This document shows, in pieces, positions 3,791-41,824 of a stretch of 46,498 nucleotides of DNA. The stretch lies in assembly GCA_001724265.1 (NCBI GenBank), contig MEDY01000238.1, forward strand, positions 1-46,498. Direction: 5' to 3'. Each line of letters begins with the position of its first letter. Positions within the stretch are counted from its first letter, which is position 1. The translations under genes were made by a program, and so were the position numbers. The notes beneath the pieces were generated by a model. That model did no database searches, was not told the DNA's origin, and saw only the letters and a list, made by a program, of their open reading frames with translations. The stretch is from Rhizaria sp. SCN 62-66. Its lineage: Eukaryota.

Positions 3791-6700
3791 TTACCGCCGC
3801 TGCTGCGCACGCGGATCGCCCTGTGGTCCAAACCCCGGTGGCTGTTGTTGCGCGGGTGGCGCATGCAGTTGACCCTGATGAAGTGGATATTGTTGTTGTT
3901 GATGCTGCTGCGGATACTGTTGGTACTGGCCTTGATTGTGGTTGGGACCTCCGTATCCTTGGCCCGAACCCGGCGGCCCATGCAGCGGTTGCGACTGTTG
4001 GTACTGATGATACTGCATCGTTGACGGCGCCTGGGGCGAGTGCGACTGCGCGCTTGGGTGCGGCTGGAACTGCAGAGGGCGAGACTGAGGCTGTAGATGT
4101 TGTGACTGTTGGTATGACACCAAATGCGCCTGAGGGTGATGTTGAGACTGGAGACGATACTGCTGTGCCTGCTGATACTGTTGGCCACTACTGTTGCTGT
4201 GAGGAACACTCGAACTACACCCACCCGGCGCCGAGTAACCCTGAGCACCGTATTGCTGCTGCTGTTGGTGGTAGCCTGCATGTTGATAACCCTGCTGTTG
4301 TCCTGCATGTTGTTGTTGGTGATGCTGTTGATGCTGCTGTGGAGGACGCTGCTCCTATCCCTGTTGCTGCGGCCATGGCTGATGTTGCGGTGGGTACTGT
4401 TGTTGTTGTGGTGAATACTGTTGCTGCTGCCGCAGCTGTTGCTGTTGCTGCGGATGCGGATGCTGCTGCTGCGGATGCTGCTGCTGCGGATGCGGATGTT
4501 GCTGCTGCTGATTAGGTGGTGGCTGTCCCTGTTGTTGCTGCGGTGGGAGTTGCGGGCGCTGCTGTTGCGGCTGCGGCGTCACATCAGCAGTGCCGTCACC
4601 GCTGTTACCTCCATTGCCCCCATCAGCATCAGCAGACGGCGGCGGTGGCGGCGGTGGTGAAGCCCGCCAGTGTAAAACAGTTGGCGCAACAATGGGCAGC
4701 GCAGAAGCCGGCGCCATTGGTAACGCTGCAACACTATCAACAGCAACAGACTGCGCAGAAGGCGCTGGTGCGGCTGTTGGAGCCGCAGACTGCGTTGTAG
4801 AAGTGACAGACGCAGCGGCAATGTCGCTAACAACTAAGGCAGGAGCGTTTACAGATGCTAAACCAACGGTCCCAGCATGGCTAGCCGCAGGGTTTGTCTG
4901 TTGTTGCTGCTGTTGCTGCTGTTGTTGCTGCTTCTCTTGTTGTTGCTTCTGTAGCGCCTTCTGCTGATCCTGCTGTTCCTGAATACGTTGTTGCACCTGC
5001 GCAATCTGCGCGCTCTGCTGCTGGCGCTGCGCCTGTTCCTGTTGCGCCTGCCAGTCGCGCTCGCTCTGCTTGCGGCGTCGCGCCTCTGCGAACGCAGCCT
5101 CAGTGCCAAGCGGCGCAACAACCGCGGCCACGTTCTCGATCGAGAGGCGCCGCGCGGTCGCCTGGGCAACGGCCTCGGCAGGCGACCAGCAGTGGCGGTA
5201 AAAGCCCCGCGCGACGGCGGAGGCGATGACGCCGCGCCACACGCTGTGCCCGTCGCGGGCGGCGCGCGCGCCGAGCAACTCGTGCTCCGGCGCCGGCTCC
5301 TGTGCGTCGCCAGTAGCTGCGTCGCTGTCATCAGTCATCTGGCTTGACTTGGCGGACACACTCTTTGCGTTGGCACTCGCTCTGTGAGTGCTCGTCGCGG
5401 TTGTGCCAGTGGTGAGCAGCGGCAACGCGAGCGCGGGAAGCGACGCGGCATCGACTGCGGGGCCCGCTGCTGTCGCGGCGCCGTGGCGACGGTGACGGCG
5501 CTGAGCCGCAGCCCCAGCCGCAGCCAATACGTCGTCTTCGTCAGCAGGGGTGACGTCACTGTCACCGGCGTCGTCGTCATCACTGTCATCTGCATTGACG
5601 CCATCAACCTCTTCTTCTTCGTCGTCATCAGCTGCGTCATCCTCATTGTCATCACCAGCGTGGCCCGCACCGCCTGCAGTGGCAGCCGCGTTAAAAAGCG
5701 TGAAAACGTCACATACAACAAAGCATCCCACACGCGCACGCGTCAACGCAACATTCACGCGCCGCCTGTCGGCCAAGAAACCAATGGGGAAAGTGACAGC
5801 GCGCTTGTGCGCCTGAGAGCCACTCTGACTGGATCCATGACTAAAAGCGCGACTATGAGCAGAGTTGTTGTCGTCTTCAGTCCCACCCTCGTTACCGTTA
5901 TGACTGTTAACGTCAACGACGTTTGTGCTTTTCGTGTCCGCGACAAGGGATACTTTGCCCCAGCCGGCCTTCGCATCCGCGGCAATAATACGGCCTGCAT
6001 TCGTGTTCCCGTCGTATTTGCCAGCGATTGATGACGGGGGACGGTACCAGGTCGACCCCAACAACAGTCGCAACAGCGATGGCGCGATGTTCCCAGGACC
6101 TGCGGCGATCGCAGCCATCAGCGCGGGCGCAAGTGCAAGCGCAGAGGCCAGTGGGAAGCACATCGGCGGCCGCACCAGCGTCGTCGAGTGTGCCAGCGCC
6201 GTCGCAAGGACCGCGGGCGGCAGGTGCGGAGGCGCGGCGGGCGGCGGCTGGCCCGAAAGCACGGACAACTGAGCAAGCGTGGCAGACGCAGCGGGCGCCA
6301 ACTCGCGCGCGGCCAGGTGTCGGGGCAGCGGACACGAGCGCACGCAGGAAAGGATCACGACGTCATTCTCCTGACCCTGCATACCGTCGACTGTGGACAC
6401 GTGTACGTCCAAAAAGCTGCCAGCAAAGGAGAAGAGCGCACCCTGCTGCACATAGCGTCCGGAACCACCGGCACCACCACTAGACTGTTGGTGATGCTGC
6501 TTCTGTGATTGTAGCTGTTGTTGCTGTTGCGCAAGGACAAGGTCAGGTACACCGTAGTGGAGATAAAAACAGTGCGGGCACCACGGGAACTCAACTGGCG
6601 CCGGTGCCGCAACGATTAGAGACGGCGGCGGCGGCGGCGGCGGAGCGCCGTGACTCTGAGAGTGACTGTGCGCGTGACTGTGAGGAGCAGGAGCAGATGT

Positions 6701-9700
6701 TGAAGGGAAAGCCGGAGGCGGGTGACATGGGCAGTCGCAAGTCTCGGGCTTCAGGTAAAATTGTCGGCGCAATCGATTGCGCTCCATGAGTGCAAACCGA
6801 TGTGCCTCGGTCAACAACTGCAGCAACACGCGGCGCTGATTCTGATAGAAAGTGACAATCGTGATCCTTGAGAGTCCGAGCGCAAAATAACGCCCCAGCG
6901 TATGCGCCAGCGCAAGCACGGCGCGCGCCTCGCGAAGGTTGCTCATCGACCGCAGAGACAGCGCGACAGCGGCCGCGGCGGATCGGCCACGTCCGCGCCC
7001 ACCGCCTGCAGCTGCAGCTGCGGCAGCGGCGGCGGCATCCTCGCTGTCATCCACACCGTCAAGTGTAAGATCTACTGCATCAGCGTCAACTTCAACGTCA
7101 GCGCCGCCGTTCTTGGAGAGAATCGCGGAGCGGAAGGCAGCGTCCACGGAATCACCGTCGCTCACGCGCATCTTGCTCGGGTCTAAGGGCGGATCCGAAT
7201 TTGCGTTATCGCTAACAGCAGCGGCAGCGCCTCGACCGTTCCAACCTCGAGCCGCAGCCTTCGCGGCGCGCTTAGCCGCCTTCTTATCCACGTCTGTCGC
7301 CACGTCCTCAGCGACGGAGTCGGAGACGGAACTTGAGGCACCGGCAGCAGCGGAAGCAAGCGCCGCGGGGAACTCGGCCCTGTCGCGCGGGTCCGTGAAA
7401 GGCACGTTGATGATTGTGAGGGGTGAGATATACCCGGTCAACAGCCGGCGTGACCGCGCCACATTGCCGGCAGCAGCGACGACTGCACTCGCGCCGCCTG
7501 CAATGTTAGCGCCGGCGTCTGCGCTGGCGGGCGCGGTAGGCGAAGCGAGTCCCGGTGCAAGGCCCAAACACGCCCCAATAGCACTGGTCGCCTGGCGCGC
7601 GTCGAGCGGCGCGATGAGGGTGCGGAACAAGTCCAGCGGCGGCAGGGTCGGGGCGGGCGCGCTCTGCGGCTGGGCCGGCTGATGGGCGTGAGGCGGAGGA
7701 CCGTGGGGGTGGTTGTTGCCGCTCTGATCCGGTTGTTGCTGTTGCTGTTGTTGCACAGATTGTTGTTGCGGTACGTGCGCACCGTGCTGAGCGTGCTGCG
7801 CCTTGTACTGTTGCTGTTGCTGCTGTCCTTGTTGAAGCAATGCTGACGTCGCGGGCGCGAACACGCGCAGCAACCCGCGCCAGATGTGCGGCGACGTTTG
7901 TGACACCTCACGGCACGCGTTCGGTACCGTCAACGCACCGCTCTGTCCGCGATTTGCACAGGCCTTAGACTGATGAACTGCGGCAAATGCAACTGCAGCG
8001 ACGGCGGCAACGCCTGTCATGCGGTCGGAAGCGTCAAGCGCAGCGCGCGCAGTGTCAGCGCCCGTTGTGACACGCCCAGCGTAAAAGGCACGCGAAGACA
8101 GCGACGCCACTACGGGGTCCATACGGTACTGCACAGTCAACATGCGACGCGGCGACAACTGGCGCGCCAGGAATAACATAAATGGAGGAGCTAACGACGA
8201 CGCCGGTGTGGTTGATGTCGCAGCAGCGCCAGGAGAGAGGAAACGGCGCGCAGCCAGCGCAAGGCGGCGTGGCGCAAAGGAAGTCGACAGTTGCGTCGAT
8301 ACTGACAGTGGGCACAGCGCGCAGTGCTCCTTCGCATCACGAACAACAAGTGCAGAGCTGAATTTACTGCTGGCGTTGTTGCCAGTGGCATCCTTCATAT
8401 TTTTGATATCGTCACTGCTCTTGTCGTCCGCTAAGGTTGCTGTGGCAACGGTGCGCTCAAGCGCGGACAACGCAGCATCCTGCAGCGCAACTGCGCGGGA
8501 CAGTGCAGCACCTGTTGCGAGCCCCGCAGCCGCAGCAGTTGACGCTGCCGAGAGCGCGCGCTGCAGACGCTCAAACAGAGACGTCTCAAACACTTGTGGC
8601 AGGCCGGTGGGCAGCAGCGAGGACGACGCGGGCAAGAACGAAGGCCAATAAGCAGGCAGCAGCGAGCGCGTAAAACTACTCGTGCTGCCCAAGCTGGATG
8701 TAGTACTGATGCTAGTGCTGACGCCGCTAACTGTTGCGCCAAGCGCTGCAGCAGTAGCCGCAGCGGCGGACGCAGCGGCAACAGCGGCAGCCGAAGCAGA
8801 TGCAGTCGCCGACGACTGCTTAACATCATCATCAGCGTCGACATCAATCGCGATCACAGATTCAGAGTCAGAATCGGAGTTAGAGTCCGAGTCCGAACTG
8901 GAAGAGTCAATCGTAATGATATTGATGTCGTTGTCGTCGTCATCGTTGTCACTGCTGCTGCTAACACTGCTGTCGCCGTCGCTGTCACTGTCACCAACAC
9001 TGCTGGTGTCGCTGCTACTGCTGCTACTGCTGCTGCAACTACTGCTGCTACCACTGCTGATGGTGAACGCCACGACGCCGCTGCCGTTCTCGCTGCGCGC
9101 GCGCGCCGCCTGTTCACGCACACGCTCGCGACGCTTGGCAGCAGCCGTCTCAGCTTCAGCGCGGCGCCGGCGCCTGCTTTCTTCCACTTCCGCAGCCTCT
9201 GCAGCCTCTGCGGCAACCGCGACTTCCGCGGCACGGGCCGCCGCAGCAGCAACAGCCGTAGCGGCTTCGATGCCGCGCACCACGATGGCGATCGCGGCCT
9301 CGATAGCGCCTTCGCCGCCCGACCGCGTCACGTGCACTGAGCTGCTACTGACTGTGCCTACAGTGGATACATCCCTATCCTTGTCCTTGACCTTATCACG
9401 GCTCTTGGACTCGTGACGCACACCTGCTGCGGCGGCAGCCGCAGTAACCGCAGCTGCAGCGCCTTCTGCGGCAGGATCATCCTGCAAGAATACCGTGGCG
9501 GGGAGCTGTTTGTGGTCGCCAACAAGCACGCAGTGCTGTGCAGCGCGCGCGAGCGCGACGAGGACCGTGAGCTCGGAGCACTGGCCAGCCTCATCAATGA
9601 TCACGTCGTCGAATACAAGAGGCGCGGGCCGCAGGCCGGCGTTCATTCTCAGGCCACCACCGCTGCCTGCGGCGGCGCCCGGTGCAGCGGCAACGGCGCC

Positions 9701-12700
9701 GATCGCGGGCGCGGGACGCGGGGAGAAGAGCGAAGGGAAACGGACCGAGACTGGAGCGCCGAATGCGTTGTATAGGTCACGCCCGCTAACAGCTGACTTT
9801 GCCGCAGACCCAGAAACAACACGGAAGGGATTCGCAGGGGCAAGCGCCAGCTCGGCGTCAACTTCGGCGCCGGCCGCAGCGAACTCTTTAGGCTCATAAT
9901 CGTCATCGGCGTCGACGTTGCACTCAATGTCGAAGGGCGAGGCCCAGTCTGACGACGGCCATTCATCGACTGAGAAGCCGTTCCACGAGTCGAACCCTGC
10001 GTCGGCCTGCGCGTCTGGACCACCGCTACCGCCGGGAGCGCCACCAGACCTGCTGCCAGCAGCTCCACCAGCAGCAGCGGCAGCGGCGGCGGCAGCGGCA
10101 GCGGGCGCGGCGGGCGCAGCGGCCCCAAGCGCGACAGCAGCCGAAGCAGCGCCAAGATGCGATGCCGCAGTGTTTGTGCGCGGCAGCTCGTCCGCACCAG
10201 AGCACGTGCAGAACACGATCGACGCCTCTTCCAGGATCGCGTCCTTGAGCACGCGCACACCGGGCGAATGCACAATCTGCGGGTTGCGCGAGAGCAGACT
10301 CTGTGCGTGCAAAGCTGCGTGCTGCTGTTGAGCATTCTGCTGCTGCGCCCGCTGAAGCTGCGCTGACTGCTGCGAATTCTGCCGTCCGCTATTGTTGTTG
10401 TACGCGTGAGTGACAGTGACGGGAAGTCCCAGCGACCGACACGCGCGGGGGTTGCCGCGCTCCACAGCGGCGTGCATTTCAAGCACAAGCGAGCACCGAC
10501 GCACTTCCTCGCGCAACGCATCGCGCCGCTCGGAGATGTCGACGAGCTTACCAACGACAACGGAAGCGGGCCGCGAGCGCAGTGTAAACGCCGGTGAAGC
10601 GAGCACTTCGGCAGCAGAGGCGACTGTGCCGCCCGCAAAGAGCGCGAGCGCTGACGGCGGCAGCGCAGACGCGGCTGTAACAGGCGGGATAATCGAAGAA
10701 GAGCTGCCAGACTCAACAGCGCCACGCGCGAGCGCGAGCTGCATGTAGGGTGGCAACGCACGGAGGAAAGAAATCGCGTCAGCAATGCACGTGACACGAC
10801 GGCCGAGCCCAGCGGGGGACCAGCGCAAATGCGGCGCAAGTGCAAAGAAGGCTTTGATGTGCTCAGAAGCGGTGCGCGTGATTTCGTTGTTGATGTTGCG
10901 CAGTTCGCGGTCAAACTCGTCCAGCGTGCGGCGCGCTTCGTCGACCGTCTGCCGCAGCTGCGCGGGCGTCTTGCGCAGGTACTCAGACACGCGAGTCACC
11001 ATCGCGATCTGCTCGCGCACAGCACCCTTGCGCAGCATACCCTGATTGTTGCCCAGACGCACAATCGACGGTGAGTAGGTCCTCAGTGCGCCGTCCAGCA
11101 ACAAGTCCACAGTCAGACGCTGCACAACTTCGTCGACGGCCGCGTTTGACGGCGCACACACCAGGATGCGCGGTTTGCGTCCAGCGGCGGGCGCCCAGGC
11201 CGAGCGCGCAGGCGGCGTTGGCGCGCGAGAAAGGTCGGCAGACTCGCGCCAGCGCTGCAGCGCGCCAGTGGAGACGGGCGCCTCGCTGAGCTCAAGTCCC
11301 AGTGCCGCGTAAAGCGTGAGCGCGTCGTTGTCGCTCACGTCGAGTCCAGCACCAAGCGCGCCGGGCGCTAGTCCAGACGCTGCAGCTGCGGCAGCTTCAG
11401 CGCGCGCCGCAGACGCAGTCGCGAGTGACCACTCGGGCGCAGCCGAAGTGTTCACGCGGCGCTGGACCCCAGCGCTGTTGTTGAGCTGGTTCGCAATCGC
11501 GGAAAGCGCGGAAGCCGTGTCAGAGCCAACGCCCGCAACGGTGCGCGCACGTGCGCTGGCGGCAGCTGCGGCTGAACTAGCCGTGGCGGCGGCAGCAGCA
11601 GAAGCCGCAGCGGACGCTGACGCGCGCGCGTTCTCAGCAAGCTTGACAAAGAAAGAACGAAGACGGCGCATCAGCACGCGCTGGCAAACGGCGCCAACGC
11701 GGACTTCGTATCCTGCAAGCGCACGGCCGAGGTGCAACGTGTTGAGCAGCGAGATAACGGTTTTGGTCTTGCCCGTGCCGGGCGGGCCTTGCAGCAACGT
11801 TACACCGCGCGAGAAGGACGACAGCGCCTCAAGTGCAGACGCACGCGCTCCCGGCGGCAGCAGCACGCGCGGCGGCGGCGCCAGTGCGGGTGGTAGCGAG
11901 CCCGGCGCTGGCAAAAGCGAGGACGCGGGACCGGGCACCTGCGTGCCAACAGCCGCGTGCAGCCTGGACAAGTATCCCTCAACACCGCTGTCCTTCTGCT
12001 CGTTCGACGACGATATGAATGATAATGGTGACGACTCAGACGATGACGACACAGCACTGCCACTGACAGCGCCAGATTGCGCGCTGTTAGCGTCAGCAAG
12101 CGGCCATGAGGGTGCTGAGCGGACGCGTTCAATTGTGTGCAGCACAGCGTCGATGGCGCGCAGCTGCGACGCGTTCAGGCGCTCTGCGAAGCGGAACTGC
12201 AGCGGCGCAGGCAGCCCCGCCCACAGCAACGACGGGGCGGGCAGCACGGACGCGGGCAGCGGCGTCGGCCGCAGCTGCACTGGAGGCTCCGCCGTCGCAC
12301 TCTGTGTCGTGGCTGCGGCGGCCGCAGCAGTTGCAACGGCTGGAACCCGGGCCGGAACAGGAGGGCGGTCACCGCAAAGACAAGCAAGAGTGCGTGAACT
12401 GGCGCTCTTGCTTCCTTGTTTCTTGCGAGCGCTCGCGTCAGCGGCGTTGTCTTTAGTCTCGTCGTCGTTCATATGAACATTAGTGTTCTTGGTGGTGGAA
12501 ATTACATCATCGTCGGTCATGGCAGCGCCGACATTACTGTTGATCTTGGTGTCGGTGTTCTCCTCAACCAGCGTCACGCGCGCTCCGCTACTGCTCCTGC
12601 CGCTGTCATTGGAAGTAAGAGTGTTCACAGTTGCGGGAGGAAGGCCACAGAGCGCACGCAGCACTGCTTGCGCGCCCGCAAGCGCAGCCACAGCACCAGC

Positions 12701-15700
12701 CGGATCCGCCGTCAACCGCGCCCATACGTTGTTTCCGGTGCCGCCGGAAACTGTGAGTGCTGTTGCAGTTGAGGCGGGCGCAGTTGAGAGGAGCGTACGC
12801 ACACGCTCAATGGCAACGCGCTCACGCACTGCAAGCCGCCGGACAAGCGCACGGTTCGTGACGTCAAGCAGCGCCTGGATCGCGCCGCGCCCCGCAGCCA
12901 ATCCGCCAACAAGTTTAGCACCTGATGCAACAGCAGGTGTGAGCGCCGAAGCGGGTGCCGATGCAACTGAAAGCGGGAGAAAAGCAGAGGCAGGGAGACA
13001 TCCGCCCGCAGGTTCCGAGAGCGTGCGGAAGAGCGGGAACGCGGGCATGGCAAGCACGGCGGCAAACTCGCGGCGCGCGGGGATCAGTGACGTCAGCGGC
13101 CACACGCGCAGCCGCAGCCGCTGCCACGCGGGCGCGGACGTAACTGACGCGTAGCACAATCCTGAAACTGCGGAAGTGACAAGATCCGACGTCACATTAG
13201 GGCTCGTGCGCAGCGACAGCGCGTGTCGTGGCGCCGCCTCGCCGCTTGCGGCACTGCTCGACGACTGGGCGAGCGACGCCGCACCAGTCAGCGGCCCAAG
13301 CTGGCCTGCGCCAAGCGTGGTCAGCGTACTGCCTTCAACGGTGTCTGTGTTGAGGACGTCGAAACCGGCGATGAAAGCCTCCTTCGCCAAGCCAGTGCGC
13401 ACGAGTGCGTGACCCATGTTCTGTCCCCTACCCTGAGGCGGTGTTGCCGCCGGCGTCGTCGCAGTTTCAGTCGGGTCGTCGCTCCAGAGCCCCCAGCGGC
13501 TGCGCGCGGCGTGGTACAGTGTCGCCAGCAGATCCTCCGCCGTGCGCGGCGTCGTCGACACGCACTCGGGCGGCGTCGCGCGCGCGGCGGCCACGGCGGC
13601 AGCCGTAACTGTGAGCTCAAGGAGAACGGTGGAGCCAGCGCAGTAAGAAAACGCGGGCACAAAGGTCTCCCCAGTGCGCGTGGGGTGCGGTACAACGGCG
13701 CGCGACGGCAAACTGCTGTTGATCGCTGGGCCGCGAGTCTGTCGCGCGCGCGAAGGGGTCGCCAACACGTGAACAGCGGGCACGCGCGCGCCGTCGTCGC
13801 CGCCCAGCGCCACAGCCGCCAGCACGTCGGCCGAAGGCCGGCACAGAACAGAAGCCGTCGCAGTAAGGTCCGCTGTCATGCTGCTCAGCGCCGCAATTGC
13901 GGCATTGCCTCCATCTGAGGTCCTCTGATTGCCACGCTGGTTGGGATTATTGCTATTATTGCCGTTGTTGCTCTTGTCGGGTGCGTTGGGGCGCGCTTCG
14001 CGCGACTGCCGGTGCGGCGCAGTTGGCGCAGCGTAAGCCGTACGCTCCGGCGCAATCATGAACACCGTAGAGTCATCGGCCTGCGCCACACGCTGCGCCA
14101 GCTCAGCCTTGTAGTCGCCGCCGTTGGAACGCTGCTGCTGCGCGAGCGTCAGAGCGAGGGACGGCGCGATGAGCGATGGCGTGAGTGTGACCAAATGACG
14201 CTCTGACCCCGTGTTAGTGGGCATATGTGGGTCAGAGCCCGCAGGCAGCATGTTCTGCGCCAGAGTCTCCGCCGCGGCCTCGCACTCGCCACGGAGCCCG
14301 ACCAGTCCCAGGGCGGGCACGTTTGAGGTATCAATGGCGAGGCACGAGGAAACCGAGGCTGGCGCGTGGTCCCAATAGTCGAAGCGCACGGAGATCTGGT
14401 ACGTGCGCGGCGCACGCGCAATCGCGTCAGTGCTGCTGTTGGTGCGTGCGTTTGCGTTGGCAAGAACGCCGCCGCCCGGCTGCGCCTGCCGGATCATAAA
14501 GCGGTGCGGGCCGCCTTCATCATCCCACGCAATGACGTCGTCGTCGTTGTTCTCCTCAACATCATCGTCATCATCATCGTCGATATCGTAGACAATCGCC
14601 ATGTCGTCATCGTCGTCAAGCGCGACGTAGTTGTCATTGTCATGCATCGAACGGCCGCGTGCCGCACCCGCAACAGCACCGCCACGCGCGCCAGGCGCAC
14701 CAACGGGCTTTTTGCCCTTGTTCGCATCGGCGGCAGCAGCGTTGTTGTTGGTCGTCTTCGCAGAAAGGATGGCGGCGGGGTCAACGGTGAGCACGCCCAG
14801 CGGGTCGTGGATGCTGAACACGTGCGCATAACGACCGGGCGCGTACCACTCGCTGCCAGCCGCGGCGTCAGTGTCGCCCACAGCGGCCGCCGCTGGGGGA
14901 GCGCCGAAAGAGCCGTTGACCAGCGCTGCCGCGGCAGAGGGCGCGAGGCCACCGAGCAGCGCCAGAACTGCCGGGTCTGTCTCAGACGCGTACTGAGTAC
15001 CCTGAGGCGCCGGACGCGCGCTATTGCTGTTGGTCGGAATCGAGCTGTACGAAAAACTCGAACCTGAGTTAGGGGTCGGCTTTGTGGGCTCGAGCTTCAT
15101 TGTAGCACCATCGACATTATTGTTGTTGTTACCTTGCTGCATCTGTTGCTTAAATCCCTGCTGCAGCTGTTGCGAAACGGCGCTCATGTTGGCAATAGCG
15201 CCAGCGCTCGCAGTGCCCATGTGCGGTGTCGTGGCAGCAAAGACCTTAGCCTCGTTGAGCTGCGAGTAGAGCCAGCGCCCCTGCGGCGTGACCGCAGACC
15301 GGAGCTCGCGCCGCGCGAGGCGCACTGCGCGCGCCGACGCCGCGTGCACGACGCGCAGCGCGCGGAAGCACGACACGCGGAAGTGCGCGTACTGCCGGCC
15401 CTGGCTCAGCCTCTCAATGTCGCTCGCGTCCACTGCAACAGGGGCGGTCTCAGTCGAGCCCGACACTGCGCCTCCAGACACAGCGTCCGCAACAGCACCT
15501 GAAACATTAGCAATGCCAGAAAATGACAGCGAGCTTGACAGCGCATTAAGCTGCGACTGCGGCGAAAAAAGACTGCTGCCAACAGGTTGTTGGTGCTCCT
15601 GCTGTTGCTGCACGGCAACGTGCTGCGCGACACGCATCGGGACGGCGGCCGGGTCGAACGCGATTTCGTACACAGCAGACGCGGCAGCCACGGTCATCGC

Positions 15701-18700: not shown

Positions 18701-18891
18701 CACGGCGACCGACACAGCGATAGGGTCCGCGAAGGACGCCCCCGCAGACAACGGGGCACTGGCACCAGCGCCTGCAGAAGACGCAGACGCAAGAGCAGGA
18801 GCCACAGGAGGCACAGCTCCAGACGCGGTCGCAGCTGGGACAGAAGGACGCTTGGGCGCTGCAGCAGCACTACTCCCACCAGACGCGTTCC

Positions 18892-18922
<31 letters not shown>

Positions 18923-30472: not shown

Positions 30473-30954
30473 TGCGCGGACAGAAGAGCAAAGAGCTAAC
30501 GGGTGGACTGAGAGTAGGCGTGAAGGGAAGAAGGTGGGAGAGGAAGCAGGGGGCTGCAAGATGGGAAGACAGAATTAGGCCAGTGAGCGTGGTAGAAAAC
30601 GACTACAACAGTTTAATTAAAAAATAGTGACAATGCGTCAGGTTTATTTCAAGAAATCATAGTTTCAGAAGTGCTGACGGTATTTTGAGCGCTGTGGAGA
30701 TCGGCCCAGTTGCGTCTGTTTCCGTTTCCGCCGTTGCCGGTCGGCAGCCGCGAAAAAAGTTTGAACGCGGCTAGAAAAAAACGGCTAGGGACCAGCTGCG
30801 CTCTCGATCTATAGACCGTGCACAAGGAAATAAGAAGTGAATTCGATTCTTCTAAGCTGTTTTGAGTATTTAATCTAATTTATGACTTGACGCCTTGCTG
30901 AATATACCCTCCAATTCGCAACCACCTTGTCGCCTGGCCAGAACCCTTTCGCGA

Positions 30955-32736: not shown

Positions 32737-33302
32737 TTACAGTGCCACATGGAGTATAACGCACGAACTGGGAATAGTAACAGATGATATGCTTAATTGG
32801 CAACGACCACGACGTGAGTGCGCTTTGTTTCAGGCTTTGTGAGAGCCGGGAAAGGGCCATTATATGCTTAAGTGCACTTAAATAAATACGAAAAATAGAT
32901 TAAAAACATCTGGGTCTATCGAGATAATGATGTTATAACTGTATTTGGTGTTGTTTATGCTGAATTATCGTCAATTCATGTGTTTGTGGTCACAGCGTGA
33001 CTGTGGCGCGAGTGCAGGTCAGCGACGTATCGCTTGTTGGCTCCATTTAAACAAGCGTCAAATGCGATGAGGACTCGTTGTTTTCACAATTTGCGATGAA
33101 ATATGATAATATATAGAGTATATTATACTATACTGTTTTAATCTTGCTTAAATCGCGCATTCAGAATACTATACCTTACATTTTGAATACTGAACTGATC
33201 TACTTTGCCGTCACACGAATCTCCACGCTCTCACCCGCCGTCCTGCTCTCCCCTTATTTCCCTGTGCGCCATATTCACACCGCCCGCGTGCCGCAGCGCG
33301 TT

Positions 33303-36300
33303 ATGGGCAATAAACCCGGTGGCCCGATCGACGCAGACCCTACAGCGGAGCCTGCGGCGGCGCCCACGGCGGTGCACGTCGCGACCGCGGCCGCGGAGGG
33401 CAAGACGGCTGCCGCGGCCTCGCTCCACGCCGGCAGTACGCGCCGCGCGCTGTCCAACGAGGAGCTCAAGGCGCGCGGCATCAGTCGCGCCTCGCAGGAA
33501 GTTACCCGCAGGCTTGCCAGCGGCGAGACAGGCTGGTCAGGTACGTGTCGCAGTCGCATGGCGACACTCTCAATTCCATTTGACTATTTGCTTGTTTTGT
33601 GTCATCTGCCTCTTAATCTACGCATATCAATATATAGCGTTTTTATAAGTAATTTATGTTATTTATCTAACCGTTTGTCAACTTTCGTTTGATTTCTCTT
33701 TATTTTTGCGCTGTATATTTTCGTATTCGCAGTCAAGGTGATAATCCGGGGAGCGCCCCGGACCGGCAAGACCTCTCTGTTCCACGCGCTCCAGGGCCGC
33801 CTCTCGCCCGCCGCGCTGCAGTTTGCCTTCGCCTCTTCGGCCACGGCGGGCGGCGACAGCAGCGACGCCGAGGCGGCGATCTCTGCCTTCTACCACGCGT
33901 CGCCAAGCACGGTGGACGCGGCCGCCGAGCCGACGCCCGAGGTGCAGTCTGCCAAGGTCGGCTGGCGGCTCATCCCGCCCGAGGGCTACTTCGCCTCGGC
34001 CATCGGCTCCGCAAGCCCCTTTGGCCTCCTGGGCCCCGCCGTCACTGCCGCGCACTCAGGCTTCAGCTCAAGCTCTCACTCTAATAGTAACAACAGCGGC
34101 AGCGGGAGCGGCAGTGTCGGCCTGGGCGCGAGCGTGATGCTGCCGCCCGGCTCGGTCCCGCCCTCCTCGGTCACCGCGGCGGCAGCCCTCTACGCCACCG
34201 ACTACGTCACGCTGGACCTGATTGATTTGGTGGACTCTGGCCTCGCGCGCCTGCAGCCCGCGGCGTCGCTGCCGCCCGCGCAGCGCCACCTCGCCGCCGC
34301 GGCCGCCACCACGGTCGCGCCGACAGACCCGCGCCACCCCGCGCACGCGCGCTTCCAGCCTAGCCCCGCGCTTGCGTACGGGCCGTGGTACGTCCAGCTG
34401 CGCCAACAGGCCATGCTCGCCGCGCTCGTGACCGTCCCTGCCGAGGGTTCGGCGTCGGCCGTGGCTCGCGCAGTCGCCGCCGCCACCGCCGTGCGCACCG
34501 CCGCGACGCTGTCACTCGCCGCGGAGGCCGCGCTGGCGGCGGGCGCGTCCCCGGCGGCGGTGGCCGCGGTGACTGCGCCCGCGACGGCCTGGGAGCTGCT
34601 CGCTGGCTTCAACCCTGTGACGTCGTTCCAGTTTATCACGGACATCCCCGCCGTCCCACTCGCCGCGCTGCCCAGCGTTGACGCCAGCATGCTCAGCGAC
34701 CCCTACTCCGGCGCCGCCGCCATGGTACGTCCCGCTTCATTTCACATCGCGCGCGAGATGTCTTGTTATGGATTTATGGATTCGTGACTCTTGAATATGC
34801 TGTTTTTTTCTTTCTCCAATTTTGGGGTGTTTTCGTGAAAATTGACTTTAATTTTGTTTGTTTAATGTACCTTTTCTTTTTTCTCTTACTTACGCTCCCT
34901 TTTTCAACTTTTTTCTTGACTCTGTGACCACGTGACCTCAACTAACTCCCTCTGCGACCGTGACTGTGACTGTAACTGCGCGCAGGTGGTGACCGTTGAC
35001 CCCCGCCGTGCTGACTCGCTGCAGTACTGCGCGCAGGTCATCAACGCGGCGCCTAAGCACCTCGACGTCGTCGTCGTGCTGGGGTTCCGCGACTGCCGCG
35101 GCCCTGACGGCAGTGAGGCCTGCGGCATCACCGTCGAGCAGGTCGAGCAGGTATGCCCTACATGCGAGATATCTCACGTATAGAAAATGTATTCGGAGTA
35201 ATTTTAGTATCTCTATTTGAATATTTGCATCAAAGTTGTAATACCAGACATTTATTCTTTAAATCACTCATATATGCTTTCAAATCCTTTGTTTTAACTA
35301 TGACGACCAACCTAGGCCGTCGCCGCGCGCCCGCGCACGCGCGTGATCGAGCTGTCCCTGCGCACAGGCTTCGGGCTTCCCGCGCTGCACTCGTTCTTCT
35401 CGCTGCCGTTTCTGCGCGCGCGCCAGGCCGTGCAGCTGCAGCAGCTTTCCGCGCTGGTGGCCTCGCTGGCACACTCCGAGTCTGCTCTGGGCGGTTCTCT
35501 CACGGGCGGTGACCCGGCCTCCGTGCGCGCGGCCCTCGTGGCCGCCGGGCAGGACGGGCCCGCCGTGCCGCGCGCCGCCGCGGGCCCCGCCGGCAAGCTG
35601 TCGCTGCCCTACGCTGACTGGGTGCGGTTCGCGCGCCTCACCGCGGGGTCCTTCGGCGCGCCCCTCGCCGCCGCGCTCATGGCCCATCTGGCCGTCGACG
35701 CCGCGGCCGCAGAGAAGGCCCTCGTCGCCGCCGGCAAGGCCGCGCGCGGCGTCTTCAGCCGTCTGCTCGGCACCGGCAAGGGCGCCGGGTCCTCGTCGGC
35801 CGCTGCCGCCGCCGCCGCCGCCATCGCCGCCGCCGCCTCGCCCCCCGGCTCCCCCGCCGCGCCCAGCGCAGCAGCCGGCGCCGGCGTTGGCGGTGCGAGC
35901 GGCGCGGCGGCGGGCACGGTGCCGGCTGTGGCGCTGGCGCTCGCGGGCGGCCCCGCGGCGGCGCTCGCCGCCGAGGGCTTCAGCGACCCGGCGGCCGTGG
36001 TGGCGGCGCACGCCATGCTGGCCTCCCTTCCGCCCCCGCAGCTGCAGCGGCTGGCGCTGCTGCTCGCGCTCAACCCCTGGGCCGACGAGCGCGCCGCACT
36101 GGCCTCGGCGCTGGCGCAGGCGCGCGCGCTGGGCCCGCAACGGGCGGGCGAGCTGGGCTACCCCCTGTGGGCCGTCGACGTCGCCGCGGGGGGCGCGATG
36201 ACTGCCGCCGCCGTCGCCGCCGCCGCCGCCGCGGGCGTGCCTGGGGCCGCGGCGCTGCAGCCTAGCTCGGCCACCGGCGCCAGCTACGAGTTCCGCTCCT

Positions 36301-36847
36301 CCGCCGCCGCCGCCGCGGACAGCATCAGCAAGGCGCGCGCGGGGGGCAATGACGACGATGACGACGAGGCGGTGTTCAAGCCGGCGCGCTCGACCCGGGG
36401 CTTCTACGATGACGACGACGACGACAGCGACGCAGGTGGCAACAAAAACAAGTCGAAGCAGAGTGCCGCGAAGCAGAGCGCGAGCGTGTCGCCGCCGGGA
36501 CTCAAGACCGCGAGCTACGCCCCCGCGCCTGTACCGGTGACCGTGAGCCGCTCCCCCGCCCAGCCCGCCGCTGCCGCCAACACTGGCGCTAAGAAGGCGA
36601 CGAGTGGGTTTTACAGTGATAGTGATAGCGGTGGCGACGGACTGGTCGATCAGCGCTATGCACAGGGCAAGGGCAAGTCGAGCAAGAGCAAGAGCAAGGC
36701 TAAGAAGGGCGGGTTTTACGACTCGGACAGCGAGGCCAGCTCGAGCTCCAGCGACAGTGACAGTGACAGCGACGTCGAAGGGAACGATGAGGACGACGAT
36801 GACGACTTTCTCGAAGGCATGGCGTCACATACGGCCGCCAAGAAGGC

Positions 36848-36892
<45 letters not shown>

Positions 36893-38325
36893 TGCTGCTG
36901 CTGCTGCTGCAACCTCTGGCAAGAAGGACAAGAAGGACAAGAAAGACAAGAAGGAGAAGAAGGAGAAGAAAGACAAGAAGGCTGACAAGAAGGCTGCCGC
37001 CGCTGCCGCTGCGGAGAGTAGCGACGATGAGGTTTTTGGCTCTGCACTCGCGTCTACCGCCGCCCCTGTGACCGCTCCTGTTGCTGTCCCGGCTCCGGCG
37101 CCTGTAGTGCCTGCACCTGCTGTTGTTGTGGCCGCGCCTGCTGTGTCGTCGGGGGGCTTCTATGATGACGACGATGACGACGAGCTCGTTGCTCCTGTTG
37201 CTGTCCCTGTTGCTGTCCCTGTTGCTGTCCCTGTTGCTGCACCTGTTGCTGCGCCCGTCGCTGCTGCAGCTGAGATCGAGACTACGACTGCATTTGTTGC
37301 TGAGATCAAAAAGGACGACGCTGTTGACGAGGTCGCGGAGGATGACGATGACGAGCTCGAGGTCCCTGCCAGTGCCACTGCTCCTACCACCGCCACTGCT
37401 GCTGAGACCAAGGCTGAGGCCGAGGCTGAGGCTGAGACCGAGGCTGAGGCTGAGACCGAGGCTGAGGCTGAGACCGAGGCTGAGGCTGAGACTGAGACTG
37501 CTGCTTCTGAGCCTGAGACTGTTGTTGCTCAGAACGAGGCAGCTGTCGCCACTGAGAAGCCTACGGCCATCAATAGCGATAACGATAACGACACCGATAC
37601 AGACGTCGGCGTTGTGGTGACCGTCGCCTCTCCCGTCGCTGCTGACGCTGGCAGCGCTGACGCTGACGCTGATGCTGCTGAGGCTGAGGCTAAGTCCGAG
37701 GTTAAGGGTGAGGCTGAGGCTGAGAGCAATGATGACGACGACGATGACGATGACCTTGATCTCCCTGCATCTGCTGTCATTGCATCCTCCGCTGCCGAGA
37801 CCGCTGCCGAGCCCACGGTCACTGCCGCGGCACCCGAGGCCGTGGCTGAGGCCGAGGCTGAGACCGAGGCTGCCGAGGCCGAGGCCGACGCCGCTACCGT
37901 GACAGAGACTGGGATTGCGACGGCGACGGCGGACTCCGCTGACAATGAGGACGAGGATGAGCTTGATTTGCCCTCTGTTCCCGTCACTGCGGTCACTTCT
38001 GCTCCTGCTGAGGCCGAGGTTGAGGCTGAGGCTGCTGCTGCTGAGGCCGAGACCAACAAGGTCCCGACTGACGACGACGACGGCGACAACGACGAGCTTG
38101 AGCTCCCCACGACCACTGCTACTGCTGCCGCCGCTGCTGCTGCTCCTGTTGCCCCTGCTGTTGTTGAGACTCCTCCTGCTCCTGTTAGCAACAACAACAA
38201 CGCTGACGACGATGACGACGATGACGACGAGCTTGATGTTCCCGTTACTTCCACCCCTGTCGCTTCCGCAGCTCCCATTGCCGAGGCTGCCGCTGCCGCT
38301 GCGCCCGCGCCCGCCGCTGCTACGT

Positions 38326-38356
<31 letters not shown>

Positions 38357-38702
38357 CGCGCCCGCTACCGGCGGCTTCTACGACGATGATGATGACGACG
38401 ACCTCGACCTCCCCACGACCGCTGCCACTGCTGCCGCGGTGGCTGTGAGTGCATCTGCAGGCGGTCTCTTCTCGTCCCTCAACGCCCCCTCCGCCGGGTT
38501 TGATCTTTCCGGCCTCAACAGCGGCCTCAGAGGCGGCCTTGGCTTCGGCGGCGGCTTCGCTGGCGGCGTTGTCGTCCCCAGCACTGAGAGATACGAGTAC
38601 GACGAGGCCGCTGAGCTCGCAGCCTTCGACGATGACGGCGACGGCGACGGTGGCGCGGCCAACGCGGCGGGCGGCGCCGATGACGGATACGAACGCTTCG
38701 GC

Positions 38703-38738
<36 letters not shown>

Positions 38739-38903
38739 CGCGCGGGCGCTGAGGCCGACGCCAGTGAGGGCAAGAAGGAGAAGAAGGAGAAGAAGGACAA
38801 GAAGGAGAAGAAAGAGAAGAAGGAGAAGAAGAGCAAGAAGGCTGTGTACAGTGACGACGACGATGACAACGGCGCTGCTTTGGGCGGATTCTATGACGAT
38901 TGA
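33303..38903 (+). CDS. RABL6: Rab-like protein 6 (RBEL1/Parf) with a long low-complexity tail; exons 33303-33540, 33733-34724, 34986-35150, 35316-38903
   Basis: VKVIIRGAPRTGKTSLFHALQG, PTPEVQSAKVGW, DYVTLDLIDLVDSG, VVVVLGFRD and ELSLRTGFGLPALHSFFSLPFL parallel RABL6 [21 protein letters not shown] ... SSMKNSFGLKYLHKFFNIPFL. Tail is acidic and KKEK-rich. Ends in TGA. Confidence 0.85.
37401..37500 (+). repeat. 18-bp coding tandem repeat (AEAETE)
   Basis: gaggctgaggctgagacc units in the RABL6 tail. Confidence 0.8.
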
Positions 38904-39285
38904 GCTCTTTGATTTAAGTTCAGCTCCTGCAATGTGTTAACAAATGTTGTCTGACGCTTGTTTTCTCGTGAACTTTCTTGAGTTCATGTTGTAATTTAAC
39001 GTGCCAATTTAAAGTCAATTGTTTTTTGTTTCTGAATCATTAACATCAACAATTTCTACGAATAGATACATACTTAACACTCATGTGTGTACAAAATAAG
39101 ACTTTGTATGTAAACAAACGTTCCACTGCAAATTTATAATTGTCGCAGAGAACAGGCTAAATAATAAGATCGTGGCTTAAAGTAACGATTGCCAATAAGG
39201 AGCACATCAAGGACTAGGTAACATGTAGGTTGAGTAACGCAACTCAGACAGCAATGCATGTTGCTGCTGGAACCACGACGCAGCA

Positions 39286-39862
39286 TCACTGCTGCGCCGC
39301 CGCAGCGGGCGTGCCGCCCGAGCTGAGGCAGAGATACGTCCCGAGCGAGATAAGCGCGGCGCCGAGCAGCAGGCGCCGCGAGGGCCGCGACTCGCCCAGT
39401 GCGGCGCCGGTGAGCGCGGTGGCCACGAAGGTCAGCGCGTTGCACAGCGGCTGCGCCAGCGACAGGTCCAGGCGGTACAGCGCGAGCAAAAAGAAAAAGG
39501 AGCCCAGTTGGTTTAGCGCGAAGGCCAGCCAGAACGAAGGCGTGCGCAGGCCGGCAGCCAGACCACCACCAGTGTTGCTGCTGCCCTTGATGCTGCTACC
39601 GCTCTTGCCGTCGCTGGGAACCGGGGACATGTCGTCACTGGGAGTAGAGTCACGCGAGTGCTTGCTCAGACTACACACAAGCAAAGACGCGTAAAAAGAG
39701 CGTGGTGAGATGTGATGTGCGAGCGGTGCGGGTAGCGGGCAGAGAGGCGCGAAAAGAGTGGTGGACGTACAATGGGTTTGTGCAGCCCCAGCAGACAGCG
39801 ACAAGCGCAACGTAGACAAGCGATGGTATGCTATCCAAATAAGGGCGAATAAATTCAGCCAT
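39286..39862 (-). CDS. TMEM234: TMEM234-family small membrane protein; exons 39862-39771 and 39670-39286
   Basis: LVAVCWGCTNPF|LSK ... FWLAFALNQLGSFFFLLALYRLDLSLAQPLCNALTFVATALTGAALGE. 100-nt GTACGT...TAG intron. Ends in TGA. Confidence 0.9.
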
Positions 39863-40147
39863 ATTCCTGATCGAAAAGTGTGCACCGGGCCTTCTTAACG
39901 ATCACAAACTGGAGATATCATTTGATGATGATAGGACTCTTCGTGGTCCTCCGACGATCAACAACGGCTCTCGTATCAAAGCCGTGGGTTGTCCCTTTTT
40001 CGCTAGCACTCTACACCTTATCTCATCATTGAATAAGACTTTAACTACTTCTACCAAACTGTACAGCCTCTTTTGTATACTATAATTTTGGCTTACACTT
40101 CCAAATTATGCACCGCTCTCACTATTTCACATCTCCTGAAGACCAAG

Positions 40148-41824
40148 ATGCTGCGCCGGTCGACACGGCTGACGCTGCGCAGCGCTGCCGAGGCCGAGGA
40201 GATTCTGAGTCCCGCCAAGCCCGCCGCTGCGCCGGAGACCAAGGCGGATGACTCGTACGTGCTCGACTATGACATGCCTCCGCAGGTGTCTCTGGGCGGC
40301 TACTCGCGTCACGTCACTCCGGGCGCCCAGCGCATCCGCAGCAGCTTCGCGCCTTCCCTCGCGTCGCTCGCTTCTCTCGCCACCGTGCCCACTGCGTCCG
40401 TCGCGCCGCACACACCCGCTCCGCCGACCACGCTCTCCACATCGTTCTCCGACTCGCTGGACTCGCCGCCGCCGCCCGTGGCCTCGCTGCGTACGCCGCG
40501 CTTCGCGCGCCCGATGAACCCCGTGACCAGTCTCTCGGGCCTCAACACGCCCGGCGCCGGCGCGGCCGGCCACGCCGGGCTTGGCGCGATTGCGAGTACG
40601 CCCTTCGCGGCGCGGGCCGGCGCGGGCGCGTTCCCCGCCACGCCCAGCGGCTTCTTCGGCCACAATAGCCACCACAACAACAATAACTACAACGCCAACG
40701 CCACTGCCGCTGCTGCTGGTGCTGGTGCTGGTGCTGGTGCTGGTGCTGGTGCTGGCGCTGGCGCTGGCGCTGCGGGTGCGAACACGCTGGCGACACCGCG
40801 GCCGTTTCCGGTGCACCCCGGGCACACGCCCGCGCCCGCGGTGGCCCCCACCTCGGCCTCTGCGTCTGCTATATCCAGCAGCAGTAGCTCCAGCGCTGCC
40901 CACTCCGCCTTCAGCCCTGCACCTCACACCGCCGCTGCCGCTGCTGCGTCGCCCGCGCACTCGCTCGTCCCGGCGGCCCCGATGACCGCTGTGTTTGTGG
41001 CGGCGTCGGCGGCGGCGCTGGTGTCGGCCCCCGACGCCCGCGCGACCGCGTCGCTGCTGCGGCACTGCGTGACCGTCTTCGGCTTCCCGCCCCACCGCGC
41101 CGCGCTCGTGCTCCCTGCGCTGCTGCGCGCCGCCGCCGCGGCCTCCGCGGGCGGCAGCGCGGGCGGCGCGGGCGCGCGCAGGGACCCCGCGGCTCCGGAC
41201 GCGGCCGTGGCCGTGCTGGCCCTCGGCTCGGCCTCCGCGGCCGAGGCCGTGCTGTCGCGCAACGGTGCGCTCGTCGGCGGGTACATGATCGGCGTCAAGC
41301 CCACGGAGCGGCACGAGGTGTCGGCCGCGTTTCTGCTTTCGCTCGCCGAGGAGGCCGCCGCCCAGGCGAACAATAGTCACGCCGCGGCTTATGTTAAGAG
41401 CAGCGACGTCCTGGGCTACGACGGCGATGACGACAACAACGGGGAGGACTACGCGGCGAAGCAGCTGCGTGCGGGCCACGACGGCAGCGATGACAGCAGC
41501 GACAGTGAGCAGCAGTTGGAGCAAGACCAGGCCGCTGCGGTCGCGGCGGCGGAGGCGGCCGCGGAGGCCGAGGCCGAGGAGGAGGCCGGGGACATCTTTG
41601 ATCTTGACGCGCACATGCAGCGCCAGGCCCGCGTTGCCGCCGCGCGCCGCTCGCGCTCGCGCTCCGCCGCGCCGGGCAAGAGCAACAGCAACTGCAGCGA
41701 GTCTGCATAGTCCGAGTCTGTGTTTGCGGGACGGGCTGGGGTGCAGCGGGCGCCGTGGGAGGACACTGTGCCGCGTCGTGTATCAGTCTGTGTGCGCATT
41801 TGCGAGTACTTTCGCGGATATTGA
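40148..41824 (+). CDS. NUP35: Nucleoporin Nup35/Nup53 (MPPN-type RRM); in-frame TAG at 41708-41710
   Basis: RRM ends CVTVFGFPP...AEAVLSRNGALVGGYMIGVKP (cf. WVTVFGFP...ALSKDG..IMIGVKPC). Reading through the TAG gives C-terminal SVCVRICEYFRGY-TGA, resembling the Nup35 terminal amphipathic helix SLVSKAMEYMFGW. Confidence 0.82.
41708..41710 (+). other. In-frame TAG, probable sense codon (Nup35)
   Basis: The frame stays open for 37 more codons to a Nup35-like C-terminus and TGA. Confidence 0.8.

Follow-up and report, generated by a model that had tools for sequence, protein, structure and literature searches.

We found that UAG lies within translated sequence in at least two unrelated genes, one DNAAF1-like and the other Nup35-like, on a contig from an uncultured eukaryote (the window, meaning the whole 46,498-nt stretch of DNA analyzed; all coordinates refer to it). 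This much is shown, because homology crosses the TAG codons at 31051 and 41708. The wider conclusion is likely: this GC-rich organism appears to translate UAG as an amino acid, with UGA and most probably UAA still serving as stops. That UAG is a sense codon in the organism is inferred from the position of TAGs inside intact conserved genes together with the absence of any gene ending in TAG; as a statement about the organism it extends to a whole genome what four codons in 46 kb show. An earlier reading of the window, made from the sequence alone, had proposed UAG as a sense codon, and this is supported by homology over the codon, by recurrence of the codons in other assemblies, and by the lack of TAG at all eight complete gene ends; its wording that "this organism uses" a variant code was firmer than such a base allows.

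The in-frame TAGs occur at 4355, 19454, 31051 and 41708, and a frame check of the genes found no internal TAA or TGA, confirming the coordinates and frames of that reading. Over 8,696 counted codons the internal in-frame stops number TAG 4, TAA 0 and TGA 0, so that UAG is used at about 1% of the frequency of CAA+CAG (CAG 309, CAA 99; Leu codons, for comparison, 649). Under a chance model of random in-frame stops, with a TAG share of 0.165 as found among out-of-frame stops of the Sen1 gene, the probability that 4/4 would be TAG is P ~7e-4. Three of the roughly nine genes in the window contain an internal TAG, and all four codons are set in tolerant, polar or disordered positions. Exons are 65% GC, and introns are spliceosomal and AT-rich. 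Composition steps coincide with TAA 3791, with TGA 41824 and with the ATG region at ~20233-20330, and none coincides with a TAG. The frame remains free of TAA and TGA for 187 codons past TAG 4355 and for 37 codons past TAG 41708; past the eight true stops, another stop follows in frame within 1-24 codons. Additional TAGs at 35313, ~43737, ~44400 and 45017 were considered as coding and rejected, as they are intron 3' ends or intronic despite open frames.

The DNAAF1-like (dynein assembly factor 1) gene occupies 30955..32736 on the plus strand, with exons 30955-31084, 31221-31363 and 31576-32736 and a TGA stop; a GTCCGT donor opens both introns, and the remainder of the gene is intact. It has Pfam LRR matches and 23 homologues at E<=1e-5, several of them named dynein assembly factor 1, and is under clear purifying selection. 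Its TAG (31051..31053, plus strand) is in exon 1, codon 33 of 477, at position x within the conserved LYSTP-x-LNDKLYLHYK. The 19 of 23 homologues that cover this column all have a sense residue there (E 9, S 3, Y 2, H 2, F 1, R 1, C 1); the column is variable, with Gln in 0/19 homologues and Leu or any other aliphatic residue likewise in 0/19. A close relative, P0145, has Ser at the column between flanks that are identical at 30/30 residues (15 per side), and over -20..+70 of the TAG the two proteins match at 77/89 positions.

The second gene crossed by homology (40148..41824, plus strand, 558 codons with TAG read through, stop TGA) is called Nup35-like, a label that was given in the sequence-only reading and that must be considered weak, its Pfam RRM_Nup35 match (E 0.005-0.03) falling under the curated cut-off. 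The standard code gives an ORF of 520 aa. TAG 41708..41710 (plus strand) is codon 521, in a polar linker, SESA@SESV (@ = TAG), and the 37 codons that follow (41711..41821, plus strand) encode the C-terminus APWEDTVPRRxSxCxRxCEYxRxY. The relative P0147 aligns through the TAG, keeps APWEDTVPRR..CEY..Y, and finishes at the same final residue, with the TAG column itself falling in a gapped, unalignable and variable stretch of the linker. GC past the TAG is 64% up to ~41800, then 46-48%. A gene-caller protein, P0146, is truncated, ending at the TAG.

Both of these codons recur elsewhere. A contig from another study (X4 record 11) spans 30011-31348, including TAG 31051, and differs from the window only at 30834. 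TAG 41708 is spanned with 0 differences by X3 record 8 and by a contig from a poly(A) RNA library (X7 record 32), and is also present in contig L001, which is identical over 2,700/2,700 nt, although its independence from the source sample of the window is not established. None of the aligned contigs has alternative letters at either codon. Since assemblies from other studies contain both TAGs, and an RNA-library contig contains 41708 as well, they are not assembly errors; assembly error had been named in advance as a refuting case, and for 31051 and 41708 it is not borne out, at the level of contigs rather than raw reads. The RNA library may contain DNA, no RNA contig spanning DNAAF1 exon 1 was found, and the recurrence comparison did not cover the other two TAGs. 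Sequence of the organism occurs in several publicly available metagenomes (bioreactor, wastewater) and in poly(A) metatranscriptomes.

Those other two TAGs are in a Sen1/Upf1-like SF1 helicase gene (3791..20233, minus strand; 5,480 codons if its TAGs are counted as sense; Pfam matches AAA_11, 5e-43, and AAA_12, 8e-23), whose standard-code ORF is only 4355..19408 (5,017 aa, ending in TAG). Frame 0 of this gene contains 2 TAGs and no internal TAA or TGA; the other two frames of the same strand contain 66 and 161 TAA+TGA. The TAG at 19454..19456 (minus strand, CTA on the forward strand) is codon 260 and closes a Gln run, PQPQQQ@SLS; GC is 58-90% from there to ~20330, so that the change in composition falls at the ATG upstream rather than at this codon. 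The TAG at 4355..4357 (minus strand, again CTA on the forward strand) is codon 5293, in PQQQG@EQRPP within a Q/P/H/Y-rich tail, and the frame continues from it to the stop TAA at 3791..3793 (minus strand), GC falling only below ~3800. This TAA is followed by AGA TGA, forming a tandem stop. The extensions are of low complexity and weak evidence alone: the N-terminal one is free of TAA and TGA in 3/6 frames and the one past TAG 4355 in 4/6 frames, and both rest on the composition steps only, with no homology support. TAG is probably translated at these two sites, but it remains possible that 4355 is a true stop and 19454 part of a 5' leader.

Eight complete genes in the window end in TGA (6), TAA (2) and TAG (0), a small sample in which the terminal codons assigned by the sequence-only reading held for all eight. 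TAA ends the Sen1-like and KH genes, and TGA ends the TEX47, DNAAF1, RABL6-like, TMEM234, Nup35-like and nicastrin genes. One end had been misplaced: the RABL6-like gene (33300..38903, plus strand; introns ~34725-34985 and ~35151-35315; long acidic tail) does not finish at 34787, as splicing carries it to 38903, where the stop is still TGA (38901-38903). No Pfam match was found for this gene, and its RABL6 label, inherited from that reading, is unconfirmed. The nicastrin gene (42510..45622, plus strand) has several exons and matches Pfam Ncstrn_small at 3e-22 and Nicastrin at 8.5e-21.

UGA still serves as a stop. This is shown by six of the eight gene ends, by the end shared between the Nup35-like protein and P0147, and by two ORFs whose Pfam profiles run out near the ORF end: TEX47-like (29292..30188, minus strand, 5.5e-8, profile positions 78-191 of 192) and TMEM234-like (39286..39894, minus strand, 3e-18, profile positions 40-112 of 113). 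Retention of UAA is likely, resting essentially on the KH-domain gene (26612..28066, plus strand; Pfam KH_1 at 1e-41), so the earlier statement that UAA remains a stop was stronger than its support. The KH TAA falls at a GC drop, and reading past it would add 61 codons of 44% GC, with 2 TAGs, before a TGA. The Sen1-like TAA is weak as evidence for a stop, because a TGA lies two codons on.

Glutamine is the most likely meaning of UAG, but is not established. Its support is sequence context only, two of the TAGs being in or just after Gln runs (CAG CAG CAA TAG; QQQG@EQ), and the "probably Gln" of the sequence-only reading is weaker than implied, both alignable sites being in variable columns. 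Mechanistically, a tRNA with anticodon CUA would read UAG and not UAA; the simplest source of such a tRNA would be a mutated copy of tRNA-Gln(CUG), and recognition of UAG by eRF1 would have been lost or weakened. These steps are inferred, not shown. Anticodon CUA was found in none of the seven tRNA genes in the window (Arg-ACG x4, Lys-CTT x2, Ala-AGC), and the eRF1 gene is not within these 46 kb; the sites of interest in its N-domain are GTS, NIKS, YxCxxxF and neighboring positions (PMC5304391). The rarity of UAG and the tolerance of its sites fit a reassignment that is recent or inefficiently decoded.

The alternative that survives best is that UAG is sense but not Gln, being read instead as Leu, as in the sainouroid exLh, or as one of the residues Glu and Ser, for which certain ciliates and Scotinosphaera give precedents; we rate this as less likely than glutamine but a real possibility. 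In its favor, the H+-pyrophosphatase of the window groups with that of the sainouroid Guttulinopsis, and exLh, of that group, has UAG = Leu (PMC5304391); the DNAAF1 column is mostly Glu (9/19), with Ser in the nearest relative; and a single substitution turns TAG into GAG or into TCG. Against Leu, 0/19 homologues have Leu or an aliphatic residue at that column (a tiny and weak sample), and exLh uses UAG often at conserved Leu (PMC5304391), unlike the window; 4/4 sites are polar or disordered, and two are in Gln runs. None of these points is decisive.

Ambiguous or leaky UAG is unlikely. Here UAG would still end genes across the genome, whether depending on context (the situation in Condylostoma, karyorelicts and Blastocrithidia) or as a weak stop, with readthrough by near-cognate tRNA in the genes seen here. 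This could accommodate the great rarity of in-frame TAG (4/8,696) and its restriction to tolerant positions, the absence of a CUA tRNA from the window, and the sampling of only 8 stops. However, TAG terminators are 0/8 (which does not exclude dual use genome-wide), and the TAGs include some far upstream, at codon 33/477 of DNAAF1 and 260/5,480 of the Sen1-like gene, where inefficient readthrough would abolish the protein; DNAAF1 is nonetheless under clear purifying selection. The 3/~9 genes hit are moreover far above what programmed readthrough would give.

Less likely still is reassignment of both UAA and UAG to Gln with UGA as sole stop (the NCBI table 6 type of Amoeboaphelidium, hexamitins and many ciliates). 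TGA does terminate 6/8 genes, and the Sen1-like TAA is backed by a nearby TGA. The absence of in-frame TAA is indecisive, only ~1.3 being expected under this code (from 99 CAA and TAG:CAG of 4:309) and 0 observed; the 0/8,696 codons therefore count against it with low power. The main objection is the KH gene, whose TAA stands at a GC drop and whose readthrough would add the 61 codons of 44% GC. The standard code, under which each TAG would be a genuine stop, a nonsense mutation in a decaying gene or a sequencing error, would still leave ORFs of 5,017 aa (Sen1-like) and 520 aa (Nup35-like) and agrees with the gene callers that yielded truncated P0146, but is all but excluded by conservation that spans and outlasts TAGs 31051 and 41708, by their recurrence in assemblies from other studies, one of them of a strain that has SNPs elsewhere, and, for 41708, in an RNA-library contig, and by the lack of any accompanying frameshift, TAA or TGA (4/4 TAG, P ~7e-4).

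The only taxonomic hint for the organism comes from the H+-pyrophosphatase (V-PPase) gene, of which the N-terminal 234 codons, with 0 in-frame TAG, are at 1..702 on the minus strand and run off the window. It falls in a clade whose sole named member is the rhizarian sainouroid Guttulinopsis; a placement toward Sainouroidea is possible on this single gene. The sequence-only reading had raised a possible independent origin of the code, which cannot be judged, the sole hint pointing to the group in which UAG = Leu is known (PMC5304391).

Nuclear codes that split UAG from UAA are very rare: outside the ciliates, the two studies consulted on this point (PMC5304391, PMC11687900) name just three, in Iotanema, in Scotinosphaera and in a rhizarian. 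The organism of the window is likely a further member of this type. The rhizarian exLh (Sainouroidea) has UAG = Leu with UAA and UGA stops, and 384 UAG in 71 genes (PMC5304391). It shares with the window a probable reassignment of UAG only and perhaps, by V-PPase, a broad lineage; yet a gene of exLh contains ~5 UAG, most of them where Leu is conserved, whereas the window has 4/8,696 codons with none at a Leu-like column, and exLh is insect-associated, whereas the organism studied here is known from bioreactor and wastewater metagenomes. Iotanema spirale (Fornicata) has UAG = Gln, at ~8% of Gln codons, with UAA and UGA stops (PMC5304391). There too UAG is translated and is a minority codon, UGA and (for the window, most probably) UAA are kept, and a CUA tRNA with altered eRF1 is the expected mechanism. 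Iotanema is, however, an unrelated anaerobic metamonad whose main stop is UAA, in contrast to the TGA-dominated window (6/8), where UAG is only ~1% of CAA+CAG and Gln is undemonstrated. Codes with UAR = Gln, including that of Amoeboaphelidium protococcarum (PMC6299283, PMC5304391, PMC11687900), resemble the present case in reassigning a stop outside ciliates, here probably to Gln, and in mostly TGA ends; they differ in that TAA is also sense, where the window has 0 in-frame TAA and a KH gene ending in TAA. The ciliates Protocruzia tuzeti and phyllopharyngeans likewise give UAG a meaning different from that of UAA, as does Scotinosphaera, a green alga in which UAG encodes Ser (PMC11687900). Unlike the ciliates, the window has no ciliate features, with AT-rich spliceosomal introns and 65% GC exons, and those V-PPase relatives that have names belong to Rhizaria rather than to the green algae.

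A new case would be of value in that it comes from a GC-rich, TGA-terminating, uncultured eukaryote, in that this organism is represented in several metagenomes and poly(A) metatranscriptomes, and in that its genomic DNA is already available. For exLh and Iotanema, the tRNA, eRF1 and stage of reassignment were not yet readable, by the account of the authors who studied them (PMC5304391); here the predicted CUA tRNA, the predicted eRF1 changes and the stage could be read directly from existing DNA. A practical consequence is that gene calling under the standard code shortens proteins of this organism, P0146 being an example. A bolder reading, less likely but possible, is that the organism is a rhizarian related to sainouroids in which UAG has become a glutamine codon only very recently, given its share of ~1% of Gln codons and its restriction to tolerant sites. 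If this were true, the clade of exLh would hold two meanings of UAG, Leu and Gln, and the organism would represent the earliest stage of nuclear stop-codon capture seen so far, and the genes for its tRNA and eRF1 could be retrieved from metagenomes that already exist.

Conserved coding sequence in this eukaryotic window runs on past in-frame UAG, which is present in DNA and also in a single contig of an RNA library, and which was seen to terminate no gene. The sequence-only reading had proposed a variant code in which UAG alone is sense, probably Gln, with UAA and UGA as stops, on the basis of TAGs at 4355 and 19454 (Sen1-like helicase gene), 31051 (DNAAF1-like) and 41708 (Nup35-like); all four are at these positions and all four are in frame. 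Its terminal codons also held: TAA for the Sen1-like and KH genes, and TGA for TEX47, DNAAF1, RABL6-like, TMEM234, Nup35-like and nicastrin, leaving no terminal TAG among the eight complete genes. One model required correction: the RABL6-like gene does not end at 34787, and splicing across two introns carries it on to the TGA at 38903. Overall the observation is confirmed, and UAG as a sense codon is supported, with Gln favoured and unproven.

TAG 31051 is codon 33 of the DNAAF1-like gene, within LYSTP-x-LNDKLYLHYK. Among 23 aligned homologues, the 19 that cover this column all have a sense residue (Glu in nine, Ser in three, Tyr and His in two each, and Phe, Arg and Cys in one each). P0145 (456 aa), a close relative known only from a metagenome, is 64.6% identical to the DNAAF1-like product overall, and 30/30 identical within 15 positions on each side of the TAG, with Ser at the TAG column. 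The gene is otherwise intact, and no intron is able to excise three bases at the TAG. We regard this as a strong case, very probably a genuine in-frame sense UAG. Searches of genome contigs with P0145 found no relatives, and likewise with the KH protein.

The Nup35-like open reading frame is 40148..41710 under the standard code and 40148..41824 (558 codons) with TAG 41708 read through; its RRM of Nup35 type is a sub-threshold match. All-against-all HMMER with its product found three proteins: P0146 from the window itself, the 218-aa relative P0147, and one irrelevant repeat protein. The alignment with P0147 spans the TAG through the last residue, both proteins terminating at the same position, and conserved segments include DIFDLDAHMQR, RSRSRSAAPG and, after the TAG, APWEDTVPRRxSxCxRxCEYxRxY. 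Because P0147 aligns across the TAG to a shared C-terminal end, the 37 codons past it are coding, making this a second strong case. P0147 begins at a Val mid-RRM, while the same RRM is uninterrupted in the window; an in-frame stop or intron just upstream in the relative is possible. A metagenome search with P0147 matched only L001, a contig of the window's own sequence, and did not find the relative's contig. A homologue search with the C-terminal half found none, self included, low-complexity words having probably crowded the candidates, and PDB sequences matched the Nup35-like protein at chance level only (best E 0.1).

L001 is identical to 41306-44005 at 2,700/2,700 nt, TAG 41708 included, with its independence from the window's source not established. 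Bioreactor, wastewater and activated-sludge metagenomes from several studies (2015 to 2025) contain the sequence; run X1 is possibly the source itself, and runs X8-X12, with shares under 0.2, were left out of the count. The region 26400-42000, which excludes both Sen1 TAGs, was compared with contigs (not reads) from four runs of three other studies, and no differing letter was listed at TAG 31051 or TAG 41708 in any of the four. Record 11 of X4 covers 30011-31348 with its sole difference at 30834; the single-base differences elsewhere in X4 (about 17 over 15.6 kb) mark it as a slightly different strain, which nonetheless retains TAG 31051. Record 8 of X3 covers 40784-42000 without differences, as does record 32 of the poly(A) RNA library X7 over 41578-41856, with TAG and TGA both inside, with the caveat that an RNA library may contain DNA. 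RNA contigs lack cover over 30047-31609, DNAAF1 exon 1 included, and this is uninformative. Intron removal was not seen in the RNA contigs among the joints examined, all of which were low-complexity artefacts.

The remaining two TAGs are in a giant Sen1/Upf1-like helicase gene (3791-20233, minus strand; AAA_11 5e-43, AAA_12 8e-23), whose two domains are broken up by very long inserts rich in Ala, Ser, Gln, Asn and Asp. The standard code gives a frame of 4355..19408 (5,017 aa, terminal TAG); reading TAG through gives 3791..20233, 5,480 codons with two TAGs and no internal TAA or TGA. The two other frames of the same strand have 5 and 37 TAA, 12 and 33 TAG, and 61 and 124 TGA. The sequence beyond TAGs 4355 and 19454 is low-complexity, being TAA/TGA-free in 4/6 and 3/6 frames respectively, and Pfam matched neither the N- nor the C-extension. 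GC steps fall at TAA 3791 and ~20330, not at the TAGs, and the Q/P/H/Y-rich tail does not change in character across TAG 4355. Either TAG is weak evidence alone, and these two observations favour read-through.

The next in-frame stop comes 1-24 codons past the eight true stops, while the frame stays clear of TAA and TGA for 187 codons beyond TAG 4355 and 37 beyond TAG 41708. If in-frame stops were random, with out-of-frame stop proportions as the model, the probability that all four would be TAG is ~7e-4. A true reassignment of UAG, with UGA and UAA as stops, is the likely reading. Six genes, one of them with a homologous C-terminus, give good support for UGA as a stop. That UAA also terminates is probable and rests mainly on the KH gene, where the frame past the TAA extends 61 codons to a TGA, at 44% GC and with two TAGs; the Sen1 TAA forms a tandem stop, with AGA TGA directly after it.

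One rival is a UAR-type code, in which UAA is also sense. The 8,696 codons counted include 99 CAA, 309 CAG, four TAG and no TAA in frame; since usage of TAA on a par with TAG would predict only ~1.3 in frame, this rival is unlikely yet not excluded. With UAG alone reassigned, the four contexts (@ marking the TAG) are PQPQQQ@SLS, PQQQG@EQRPP, LYSTP@LNDKLY and SESA@SESV, two in Gln runs and all four polar, and for this reason Gln is favoured and Leu disfavoured. In the one well-aligned column, that of DNAAF1, homologues carry Glu or Ser; Gln and Leu are absent. On this contextual evidence we lean toward Gln, without proof. Amoeboaphelidium was set aside as the source, since its reported code differs in reading TAA as well as TAG as Gln (PMC6299283) and since those V-PPase relatives that have names belong to Rhizaria, neither point being proof.

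GC is ~60-72% in exons vs ~30-47% in introns and intergenic DNA. The introns are short and AT-rich and start GT(C/A)CGT, their 5′ ends being near-invariantly GTCCGT or GTACGT (31085-31220, 31364-31575, 43591-43737, 45010-45156 and others). Several 3′ ends are TAG (ccTAG/G, ttTAG/A, cgTAG/G), and TAG is thus frequent outside coding sequence though rare in frame. A suspected fifth in-frame TAG upstream of 35679 (TAG 35313) was rejected as intronic or an intron 3′ end, as were nicastrin TAGs at ~43737, ~44400 and 45017. Pfam recognised the KH-domain, TEX47-like, DNAAF1-like LRR, TMEM234 and nicastrin proteins. No part of the RABL6-like gene (33300-38903, plus strand; named by the sequence-only reading) has a Pfam family, and Pfam likewise had no usable match for the nicastrin tail or for two further ORFs. 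Its two AT-rich introns have donors GTACGT and GTATGC and acceptors cgcAG and ccTAG, and its acidic, Ala/Asp/Glu/Lys-rich tail of ~1,200 codons extends to TGA 38903.

Rfam found seven tRNA genes in the window (four Arg-ACG, two Lys-CTT and one Ala-AGC), none with anticodon CUA, and no other RNA family. An AT-rich, gene-poor stretch of ~6 kb (20400-26400) carries a tRNA cluster, in which Ala-AGC (22158) lies between Lys-CTT at 22020 and 22285. The Arg-ACG genes form two pairs of equal Rfam score, 23605(-)/25010(+) and 3401-3475(+)/25437(-), a pattern suggestive of recent duplications or inversions.

The window begins with the N-terminus of an H+-pyrophosphatase (1-702, minus strand), whose 234 codons contain no in-frame TAG; with the standard code, the full 741-aa protein, P0025, was called without interruption. 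This is consistent with UAG being avoided where a gene is conserved and probably highly expressed. P0025 is 74% and 69% identical to two other proteins over the 234 window-encoded residues. A FastTree tree of sequences ≥600 aa among the 120 best matches placed it in a 16-member clade (support 1.0) whose only named member is the sainouroid rhizarian Guttulinopsis vulgaris; the next named matches include chlorarachniophytes. Sainouroid affinity is only a one-gene hint, and a tentative one; it matters because the sole known variant-code rhizarian, exLh, belongs to the sainouroids and translates UAG as Leu. Public metagenomes contain at least one fairly close relative (P0145, P0002 and P0147 from metagenomes; also P0026 and P0027), with identities of about 50% for Nup35-like, 64.6% for DNAAF1 and 69-74% for V-PPase.

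Nuclear codes that reassign UAG alone have been described for exLh (Leu), Iotanema (Gln), Scotinosphaera (Ser), Protocruzia and phyllopharyngean ciliates (PMC5304391; PMC11687900). exLh has 384 in-frame UAGs in 71 genes, with 56 UAA and 15 UGA stops, and the code of Guttulinopsis itself is apparently standard (PMC5304391). The literature searched contains no description of this organism, nor of a comparable code in any eukaryote that is GC-rich or from wastewater, though absence is not proven. By inference from PMC5304391, a tRNA with anticodon CUA would be needed to decode UAG without also reading UAA, arising most simply from tRNA-Gln(CUG), or from tRNA-Leu(CAA), and eRF1 would be expected to have weakened UAG recognition.

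The organism is likely a further case of this known, rare kind of code. Its rare UAGs, limited to tolerant positions, fit a recent or inefficiently decoded reassignment. The only form of the Nup35-like product in the public protein collection is P0146 (window 40982-41707), a 242-aa fragment cut at the TAG, which shows that standard-code gene calling shortens the proteins of this organism.
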